Below, one piece after another: positions 52,201-55,200 of a stretch of 64,000 nt of DNA (positions are counted from its first letter, which is position 1; every line of letters begins with the position of its first letter). Under the pieces are notes generated by a model, which was not told the origin of the DNA, did not search any database, and saw nothing but the letters and a program-made list of their open reading frames with translations. This stretch comes from Schmidtea polychroa (lineage: Eukaryota). Made by a program: the position numbers and the translations under genes. The stretch spans positions 6,016,001 through 6,080,000 of the forward strand of contig CM097885.1 of assembly GCA_044892525.1 (NCBI GenBank), in the 5' to 3' direction.

Positions 52201-55200
52201 TTTATAAATATTTAAAAAACTTGGAAAGGACATTTATGGAAATATAGGTTAGATTTAAGTTAAAATTTTTTTTAAAAAGTTAGATTTTTGAAGATTTTTA
52301 TGATTTCTATGACTACTCTCGTGACAGGAAACAGAGTTTTAAACTTCCTTTGCCATGAATGTAAACTACTTCAATTGAAATCGAAATTTCTATACGCTGA
52401 TTTTATCACATAAGTATTCAATGTTTTAGAGAAGGAATTTCTATGTCAGATGAAAGTTTTTGTTAAGGAAATTGTCAAATACGGAAATTAATGAAAAACC
52501 TTTGAAATAAGCTAAAAATAATTCCATCGCAAATCGTAATTTTCATTTTGATCGAATTTCTTTGATTCGGTGAACAATTTATTAACTGATTTCTATTTGT
52601 TGATTTTATTGAAATTTAATACATTTTTGACAAAATAAGTTGGAACTGTAAACATATGAATTCCCATATCAAATTCATTCTTATATAGCTTTACATTATC
52701 TGATAACGTATATTAATACATTTTCCTTACATGTTTCAAATTTTCTTTCAATTTTTTACTAATGTAATTTTTTATAAATGGTAAAAATTTCGATAAATCA
52801 TTGCATTTAATTTTCTTTAAAATTTGTTTTTTATTTATATATTTATCTCGTGTATCTCGTTCTCAATTAGATAATGATTTGATATGTAATTTAATGATGA
52901 GTTTAATAATTTTGTTGATTATTTTAATGAATTTATTTAATCAAAAATTAATTAAGTGTCAATAAAATAAAAAAATCAATTAATAAATTAAACCTGAAAT
53001 CAAAGAAATTCTCAAAAAATAAAAAGGAATTATTTCAATTTTAATGAAATTTCGCTTCGTTCTTTTTAAAAATTTCTAAAATATTTGAATTTCTTTCCTT
53101 TTTATACTAGAGTAGCAATTTTAATAAACTATTTATACCAGAATTTATAGTAATTTCTCTAATCACCAATCGTATTTGATTTACCTTCACATTGTTAACA
53201 TATATTATGATGATTTCAATAATTTATGACATAACCTTGGAATTAATTAATCAATTTTGTGTAATCCAAATAAAAGTAAAATTTATCAATTTTAAACGAT
53301 GATTCTATCAGAAACCTTAATTTTTATCTATTGCGAATTTCTTTGATTTGCTGAATAATTTATTAACTGAACTCCATTATCACCACTGACCTCTGCCTTT
53401 CTTTATTGCGATATTTCATTTATATATTTTGATTTTATATTTTATTATATTATTTATGGTAAAAATTCCAATATTGTTTAGATAAAATTTCGATCAATAG
53501 TTTAGTCAAGTTTTCTTTCTTTTTCAATTTTACTCAAATGGATTTTTAAAAATTTTAATTTTTTCCATGTTTTCTGCTTCTTACAAAAGCTGAATAATTT
53601 ATTGACTGATTTATAAATATTGATTCTTTTGATACTTAATATATTCGATAAAATAAAATATATATTCGATAAAATTAATTTATTGGCTGATTTCTAAATA
53701 TTGATTTTATTGATATTTAATTTATTCGATAAAATTAATTTAATTTTTAAATTTATTGATTAATTTCTAAATATTGGTTTTATTGATATTTAATATATAT
53801 TCGATAAAATAAATTGTAAAAAACTACGCAATAGCCGAAAATTCTAAATTGTTCCAGTTTAAAAAATTATTAGGTTTTTTTGTCAAAATTTAGAAATCAA
53901 AATTTTTTGATTGCTAACAGAGCATTTCAGCATAATAATATATCGATTTGTTGATTGTAACATTTTGAACCAAAAATTCAAGAGAAATGTGAACCAATTT
54001 CATATCAATATTTATTACAGTTCAATATTAACTATAATCAACACGTATAATTGAATATAATTAGGTCATATTTAAATCGAAATATTTAACTATCAATCAT
54101 GAGAATATCGATAAATTCAATATATTCAATTGAAATTTCCGCCCGCCCGATCCATCCAATCACAGACAAATAAACAAAACATTACATTACACCCGTGCCA
54201 TGCTGCGTAAATAGTAATCAACAAAGAGAGCACAGAAGTACAAAAATGCAAATTATCGATTATTAATCAATCTACGAAATATTTCGACAGTTTTCCTGTC
54301 ATCATCAGGTAGGGTAGAATAACAATAGAAATTATAGATTTTTGAACAAATTTCTTAATCATATCAAACTTTATTTAAAAATTGCAATAACTATAATTTA
54401 TGAAGCATTATTGATAAAGTTATTGGATCCGAAAATTAATGTGCAAAATGAAGTGAATATATATATATATATATATATATATATATATATATATATATAT
54501 ATATATATATATATGGATTGTTGTTAAATTAAATAATTATTAAATTATTAAATTATTAAATTGGATACTTTTGAATTTAAATATTTTAAAATTTTATTTC
54601 TAATTGCTACATTTGAATTATAAATTTTAAAGAATAAAATATTTCTTATTAAAATTTGATAAAATTAATATAATTAATAAATTTGTCAAAAATCTATAAT
54701 TTCTAGTTTTTATACCCTACCTAATGATAACAGGAAAACTGTCGAAATATATCGTAAAACGAATATTTGAGTGGCGCTTTCTTATAATTAAATCATTGAC
54801 ATGTTTGTTTAACTATTTATTAATCAATTTAATATATATTTTTATAATTATAATTAATTAATAAATAAATCGTTTATTTTGAAAAATACCTTTTTTCCTT
54901 TCTAATAATTTCAAATATTCAGCCTTGAGAGTTTGTACCTGTAAATCGATAAAAAATCTAAGTGATCGTGCCATAAATAATTACCAGCATCATCCGGTCA
55001 TCAATTTTGGTGCAAATCTCATTGTAATCCTGATGCTGAAAATGTGAATGAGAACAATAACTTGCATTAGAAACGTGCTGATATCAATGGGTGCAAATAC
55101 ACAAATTTCAATCACAACGATCACGCATATCATTAATATATTAATTTCATTTCATTATCAACAAACCTATTAGTTATTAATAGCAAATTAGTTTTGACTC

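Follow-up and report, generated by a model that had tools for sequence, protein, structure and literature searches.

A probable Penelope-like fold-back relic with two hammerhead motifs, both predicted to be inactive, in a predicted RIPOR-like intron of Schmidtea polychroa

The question raised by this locus of Schmidtea polychroa is whether a predicted intron of a FAM65/RIPOR-like gene harbors a working self-cleaving ribozyme or the remains of a transposon. At issue is a minimal type I hammerhead motif on the minus strand at 54272-54312 of the 64,000-nucleotide stretch that we analyzed (the window), which a preliminary description of this DNA had proposed as an intact copy and a possible retained self-cleaving site within a Penelope-like fold-back. 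Our analyses favor the transposon: with a probability of roughly 0.88, the insertion is the 5'-truncated remnant of one Penelope-like retrotransposition, and both of its ribozyme copies are predicted to be inactive passengers.

Read from 54312 to 54272, the minus copy consists of a 4-bp helix I, CUGAUGA, an extra U, a perfect 5-bp helix II closed by a G10.1-C11.1 pair, GAAA, four bases, UC and the 3' strand of helix I. It matches the core of Penelope-type minimal hammerheads (CUGANGA ... GAAA ... UH, with helices I and II), and its core, helix I and helix II are perfect. The additional base that separates position 9 from 10.1 is the U at 54301, beside the G at 54300 that pairs with the C at 54286; position 16.2 falls at 54278. 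The scissile bond lies between 54276 and 54275, which is the junction that had been anticipated. A 27-nt core pattern allowing at most three mismatches found two matches in the window and none in 100 shuffles. A covariance model built from 17 relatives, and containing no sequence of the window, scored the minus copy at 35.7 bits (E 6.5e-9) and an inverted twin at 18.3 bits (E 0.0024), these E-values being rough; the remaining four matches in the window had E-values of at least 0.015, and the best of them (E 0.015) was without helix II and GAAA; for want of these, the match of this model at 7660-7686 was rejected as a hammerhead. A general hammerhead scan of the window returned two matches, the minus copy and a poor one at 13126, and we rejected the latter, a loose match spanning 13126-13190, for its 3-bp helix II and 33-nt loop. 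Sequence and covariance model together confirm a hammerhead at 54272-54312 with the core, both helices and the UC site. The comparison with Rfam that had been suggested was of little help: a scan of 53800-55300 at E <= 10 gave five weak matches with no hammerhead among them, but Rfam also reported no hammerhead in four of four relative loci that carry one, so it appears blind to this variant and its blank at 53800-55300 is uninformative.

Where the minus copy departs from its kind is helix III. When two hammerheads dimerize, the hexamer that runs from A15.1 to U16.1 in one pairs with its counterpart in the other. This hexamer is AUAUUU in the minus copy, which would place two U.U mismatches in a dimer, and the word intact does not fit this copy; in the twin it is AUAUAU, a perfect in-register palindrome. 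The palindromic helix III earlier ascribed to the minus copy is correct insofar as a 10-nt palindrome, GAAAUAUUUC, exists, but that palindrome is off-register, and AUAUUU is not self-complementary. GAAAUAUUUC was rejected as helix III: it brings G12 into a pair with C17, which is the wrong register, and would thereby tie up the catalytic G12-A14 in a trap. In a nearest-neighbour model that takes no account of kinetics, proteins or the tertiary core, so that only the gaps should be compared, the active homodimer of the minus copy is predicted at -8.8 kcal/mol versus -25.2 kcal/mol for the best fold, which is the trap (gap 16), and a one-base control carrying the twin's base at 16.2 gives -16.6 for the active form versus -20.0 kcal/mol for the trap (gap 3). 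With an in-register partner supplied in trans, the active heterodimer of the minus copy is predicted by the same model at -12.7 versus -21.5 kcal/mol for the best fold (gap 9).

In a 19-row alignment, 56 of the 57 helix III cells are paired and the minus copy holds the exception; the covariation counts of this alignment are partly circular because its 17 relatives were hand-picked after a structure filter. Among 47 distinct partner hammerheads, which come from the relative loci and were not selected by the search pattern, the helix III hexamer is ACAUGU in 35, its wobble version in 7 and a form with one C.A mismatch in 5; a Watson-Crick or wobble self-complementary hexamer is thus present in 42 of the 47, and U.U in none. 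A palindromic 15.2-16.2 segment is listed as a consistent feature of minimal hammerheads in the account given in PMC4209133. The family's original base at 16.2 is deduced here, rather than read from further copies in the same genome. No same-strand structured partner hammerhead, and hence no second copy in the same RNA for dimer formation, was found in the 64-kb window. Because AUAUUU is not self-complementary in register, the minus copy is classed as a decayed, not a functional, member of the minimal hammerheads.

The inverted twin lies on the plus strand at 54717-54757, as had been described, together with its G5>A change. It differs from the minus copy at 4 of 41 positions (G5>A, G10.1>A, a helix I G>A and position 16.2) and departs from the Penelope-type minimal hammerhead at G5 and G10.1. 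Both motifs belong to a 545-bp insertion (54272-54816) with inverted arms of about 95 nt. The inverted pLTR-like arm (54272-54367, minus strand) has 88% identity over 95 nt to 54665-54756, and a weaker similarity continues to about 54401; it pairs with the sense pLTR-like arm (54665-54757, plus strand). The arms enclose a short peptide (54384-54452, plus strand), directly followed by a (TA)29 microsatellite at 54457-54514, the (TA)n of the preliminary description, and then an AT-rich segment in one orientation only (54515-54664, plus strand) that probably represents the 3' UTR or pLTR body. The sense arm is followed by a 59-nt tail (54758-54816, plus strand), present on the right only. A 12-bp repeat, TTATTAATCAAT, flanks the whole as an apparent target-site duplication, its left copy (54260-54271) abutting the inverted arm and its exact right copy (54817-54828) following the tail. 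This duplication and the tail to 54816 were absent from the preliminary description and are added here. Among control positions, a 12-bp repeat with the same geometry occurred at 0 of 635, and with a looser geometry at 2 of 254.

This anatomy agrees well with what has been published on Penelope-like elements. As presented in PMC4209133, minimal hammerheads have an extra base between 9 and 10.1 and a G10.1-C11.1 pair, and they occur as dual copies on opposite strands, 100-700 bp apart; the legend of Fig. S4A there describes a 5'-truncated element with a second, opposite-strand copy at its 5' end. Like these metazoan Penelope pLTR hammerheads (PMC4209133), the motif studied here is type I with a 4-bp helix I, the extra base and G10.1-C11.1, its helix III insert is small as in the variant of Drosophila, rotifers and mosquitoes, and its second copy sits on the opposite strand about 400 nt away. 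Unlike them, the minus copy has a broken palindrome and the plus copy is without G5 and G10.1, and helix II has 5 bp versus the 7-8 given for the Schistosoma families (PMC4209133). The insertion as a whole carries a hammerhead in a pLTR near the 3' end, in both arms, and an inverted 5'-truncated copy at the 5' end (54272-54367 against 54665-54757), both of them characters of EN+ Penelope-like elements. An inverted 5' copy and a tail of 30-40 bp are described for Penelope-like insertions in PMC8557442. As far as PMC8557442 and PMC11167929 describe 5'-truncated EN+ insertions, ours resembles them in its strong 5' truncation, inverted 5' copy, one-sided tail and AT-rich target, and differs in that its tail has 59 nt versus the 30-40 bp stated and its inverted arm stops 4 nt past the scissile bond. 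The order of ORF end, 3' UTR, hammerhead and tail is what we would expect of a Penelope-like 3' end from the same two sources. The earlier suggestion of a Penelope-like fold-back relic is therefore strengthened by the target-site duplication, the tail, the layout of the relatives and the published precedent for the same arrangement. Because no RT sequence is left in the 545-bp insertion, the Penelope clade cannot be named.

The relatives were recovered from metagenomes with a core-only pattern that fixed only the helix II closing pair and one helix I base. It gave 117 loci, some of them one place in different assemblies, and most of them are probably animal DNA; exact family patterns gave no matches in metagenome contigs and viral contigs. 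Over 83 distinct contexts, helix II has at least 4 bp in 55 and helix I at least 4 bp in 59, with many different stem sequences, a count that is less biased than the covariation counts of the 19-row alignment. Back-to-back hammerhead pairs, defined by arms of at least 80 nt and at least 80% identity, are present in 48 of the 117 loci, amounting to 38 distinct pairs, and in 34 of the 80 loci of at least 1 kb. Their spacers measure 29-754 nt and their arms are 85-97% identical, and a 10-13-bp flanking repeat accompanies a 28-41-nt one-sided tail in 8 of 58 pair rows. Motif scans revealed no Penelope ORF beside the relative hammerheads, and none of the 121 frames from these loci that were scanned with Pfam (out of 343 candidates) matched a GIY-YIG family; one matched an unrelated-looking RVT_1 piece. 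The relatives consequently support the layout, not the protein. At four loci (L008, L011, L024 and L050), several hammerhead fold-backs of different families crowd together or nest inside one another over a few kb; their helix III hexamer is usually ACAUGU, and no Penelope ORF lies nearby. These may be non-autonomous fold-back families made of the pLTR only.

The two arms of our insertion have not decayed evenly, a result that speaks against the reading we favor, as do the lack of protein homology, the length of the tail and the early end of the inverted arm. Of the 7 core-arm differences that set G/C against A/T, all have the G/C on the minus arm (p = 0.016), and in a longer alignment the ratio is 8:1 (p = 0.039); decay as lopsided as this (p <= 0.05) was seen in 1 of 38 relative pairs. 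Since 4 of the 7 differences on which this imbalance rests fall outside the ribozyme, and since the lesions inside the motif, three in the twin and one in the minus copy, are split at chance level (p = 0.63), the lopsided decay is no pointer to selection on catalysis. Templates of different age, chance and weak selection on the hairpin are all possible causes. The first of these would mean that the arms stem from two events or from two templates, either because a younger copy landed beside or into an older one or because the two pLTRs of the master had already diverged. We regard such a history as unlikely, though not fanciful. It would account for the lopsided decay, it has a parallel in the nested fold-backs of L008, L024 and L050, and it would suit a flanking repeat that is perfect while the arms differ by 12%. 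Nevertheless, the unit is enclosed as a whole by a single 12-bp repeat, which directly adjoins the inverted arm, and a 12-mer at 12% divergence has about a 1-in-5 chance of being perfect. Moreover, two events would alter the history of the locus, not the verdict of an inactive relic.

The peptide between the arms, with its Glu..Ile..Pro..Asn pattern like that of GIY-YIG C-termini, is presumably the C-terminal end of a Penelope GIY-YIG endonuclease. The strict pattern occurs once in the 127,996 six-frame codons of the window, and a looser Glu..Ile..Asn pattern has an expectation of 0.007 per 300 sense codons; both were formulated once the peptide was known. The peptide had no match in Pfam or PHROGs, none at E <= 10 among the 11 candidates of a word-index protein search, no homolog by full HMMER on 1.84 billion proteins, and nothing in PDB sequences, the ESM Atlas or phage tblastn, all of these being searches that a peptide so short cannot decide. 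The label of a GIY-YIG-like tail thus drew no match from any homology search and rests on the motif. Of this motif, PMC1564403 confirms only the conserved Glu and Asn with which the GIY-YIG domain ends.

If the peptide were there by chance, the unit might not derive from Penelope and could instead be a non-autonomous hammerhead element resembling a retrozyme or a MITE. The lack of protein homology in the searches and the absence of a Penelope ORF beside the relatives would suit such an element. The account in bioRxiv 10.64898/2026.07.22.740005 presents animal non-LTR retrozymes as head-to-tail tandem units that supply a dimer partner, with cleavage in 1 of 9 dimer elements. Our unit shares with them (bioRxiv 10.64898/2026.07.22.740005) the character of a non-coding hammerhead unit, related to Penelope pLTRs and often intronic, but it is a single inverted pair without a dimer partner, unlike the tandem arrays. 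We nonetheless consider this origin improbable: the minimal hammerhead signature, the inverted 5' copy, the tail and a duplication within 10-13 bp all fit published Penelope-like elements, tandem units are lacking, the ends of the inverted arms are unequal, unlike those of terminal inverted repeats, and the low expectation for the Glu..Ile..Asn pattern, post hoc as it is, also speaks against chance.

How the insertion relates to its host depends on the gene around it. Five GT-AG-bounded exons from 55035 to 48015 join into 198 codons with no stop, reaching the exons that match PL48; two downstream exons match Pfam PL48/FAM65 at E 3.9e-6 and 0.035, both under the curated cut-off. A search for homologs of the RIPOR exons returned none at E <= 0.01. 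The joined frame predicts an intron of 3,882 nt on the minus strand (54889-51008), and the insertion begins 74 nt after its splice donor. The minus copy therefore lies on the sense, pre-mRNA strand of a FAM65/RIPOR-like gene within a predicted intron, and to this extent the exons and the PL48/FAM65 matches support what had been proposed. Its number, intron 3, was not confirmed: at 55036-55077 (minus strand), linking the frame to an exon at 57.2 kb needs a 16-nt exon and then a 26-nt intron, and Pfam matches none of the exons that lie upstream of the insertion, so the upstream exons and the intron number are uncertain. Neighboring introns of 46 and 49 nt are predicted near this place.

Other repeats and genes were also noticed in the window. 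Within the predicted intron, 51511-51904 is GC-richer, with several open frames but no Pfam match, and is unneeded for the RIPOR frame, and 52518-53830 holds AT-rich direct repeats with an 81-nt period and inverted repeats, possibly another transposon relic. A tandem array of a 20-bp unit in 59.5 copies occupies 49386-50575 inside a RIPOR intron, an (ATA)n array of about 595 copies lies at 44609-46412, and a 149-bp satellite at 60741-64000 runs off the end of the window. Broken pieces of a DDE_1 (pogo/Tigger-like) transposase are present at 46835-47563 on the minus strand, two of their frames falling just under the Pfam DDE_1 cut-off. The open frame of 636 codons at 30650-32560 (minus strand) resembles an intact hAT-type (GTF2IRD2/Buster-like) transposase. 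Exons at 7784-8077 (plus strand) presumably belong to a gene resembling mago nashi, and those at 24533-28616 (minus strand) to a gene of the RNF34/RFFL type.

A hairpin only 74 nt from a splice donor could matter to the host, through editing, small RNA or splicing, and be kept paired while the ribozyme is dead. All five transitions in the core arm have G on the minus arm versus A on the plus arm, which gives G.U on the pre-mRNA strand, where the arm duplex is predicted at -111.5 kcal/mol versus -96.7 kcal/mol on the other strand. However, these are five events noticed after the fact. A genome of 20-30% GC is expected to drift from G to A in any case, the arms tolerate two gaps and four further mismatches, and an equally lopsided pair exists among the 38 of the relatives. 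A functional hairpin thus strikes us as very improbable.

The same fold-back bears directly on the ribozyme. It takes in the whole motif, with a predicted MFE of -166 kcal/mol (z -15.8). In the 545-nt context, helix II of the minus copy has a predicted probability of about 1e-17, and freeing helices I and II from the fold-back would cost a predicted 40.7 kcal/mol, so that the monomer is not predicted to fold in the pre-mRNA. Transcription of the host gene runs from high to low coordinates, so that the polymerase reaches the antisense of the plus arm before it reaches the minus hammerhead. The earlier caveat that the hairpin may mask the ribozyme is borne out by these folding predictions, whereas the notion of a retained intronic self-cleaving site gives way before the helix III lesion, the lack of a same-strand partner in the window and the predicted burial. 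Both copies would then be inactive and the host RNA would probably not be cut.

Minimal hammerheads are described in PMC4209133 as inactive in monomers and of low activity in dimers. In what PMC11167929 reports on a Penelope hammerhead, the ribozyme cuts only with protein, cleavage is dispensable for insertion in vitro, and no RNA-seq reads end at the hammerhead cut site. The intronic hammerheads of amniotes (RECK, CTCL/C10orf118 and DTNB) are described in PMC6155905 and PMC10761166 as conserved across species, with cleavage reported for the two human ones. As characterized in those two sources, they share with the minus copy the type I fold, a place on the sense strand of an intron and a retroelement origin; unlike them, the minus copy is minimal, without a stable helix III, and remains within its transposon arm, facing an almost perfect antisense copy. 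That the host keeps the minus copy as a working ribozyme which cuts RIPOR pre-mRNA with the aid of proteins or a trans partner is the least credible of the alternatives and highly improbable. In its favor one could cite a place on the pre-mRNA strand with core and both helices perfect, the G/C kept by the minus arm at 7 of 7 informative differences, the domesticated intronic hammerheads of amniotes (PMC6155905) and one protein-assisted Penelope hammerhead (PMC11167929). It would have to overcome the helix III lesion with its off-register trap, a heterodimer that stays 9 kcal/mol above the best fold with an in-register partner, a predicted masking cost of 41 kcal/mol, a bias that is arm-wide, a 3:1 split of lesions inside the motif that is at chance level, and the absence of a same-strand partner in the window.

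The history that we favor, a single Penelope-like retrotransposition, would have begun with a nick in AT-rich intron DNA, made by a Penelope-like protein. Of the element RNA, reverse transcription would have covered the 3' end alone, comprising the ORF end, the 3' UTR, the pLTR with its hammerhead and the tail; a second, inverted and partial pLTR copy would have been placed at the 5' end, and repair would have left the 12-bp duplication. The arms may since have drifted to 88% identity. The plus copy would have lost G5 and G10.1 on the way, and the minus copy its in-register palindrome in helix III, which is required for a dimer. When the host gene is transcribed, the antisense arm would appear in the pre-mRNA ahead of the minus copy and pair with it during its synthesis; because of this pairing, splicing is predicted to remove the hairpin together with the intron, without any cut.

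One feature of the insertion may say something about how it was copied. The final base of helix I, +4 nt from the scissile bond, is also where the inverted arm stops, and the sense end lies at +63; in 30 of 30 relative pairs with enough flank, the shared arm continues 24-109 nt past the cut site, versus 4 nt here. Self-cleaved RNA was rejected as the template of the inverted arm: the arm extends beyond C17 by 4 nt, and it is these that complete helix I. An end at helix I (+4), seen in this single copy, may instead mark the start of reverse transcription at the hammerhead. According to PMC11167929, reverse transcription has two internal start sites, with the tail between them. It is tempting to speculate that reverse transcription starts at the hammerhead fold itself and that the motif is a priming landmark and not a cutter, an idea that we hold to be doubtful.

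As found, the locus is of little import: it is one more decayed Penelope-type fold-back, in an arrangement described in 2014 and with a back-to-back layout that is common among the relatives we fetched. A cut of the RIPOR pre-mRNA at this site despite the hairpin would give it more weight but is far less probable than a priming role of the hammerhead. For screens of hammerheads the lesson is that a perfect core with helices I and II is insufficient, that the helix III palindrome must be in register, and that an inverted twin masks the site. Moreover, if most copies of the family end at +4 and +63, the hammerhead would be a priming landmark for reverse transcription, and, were such a role true, what Penelope hammerheads do would become testable from genome copies alone.
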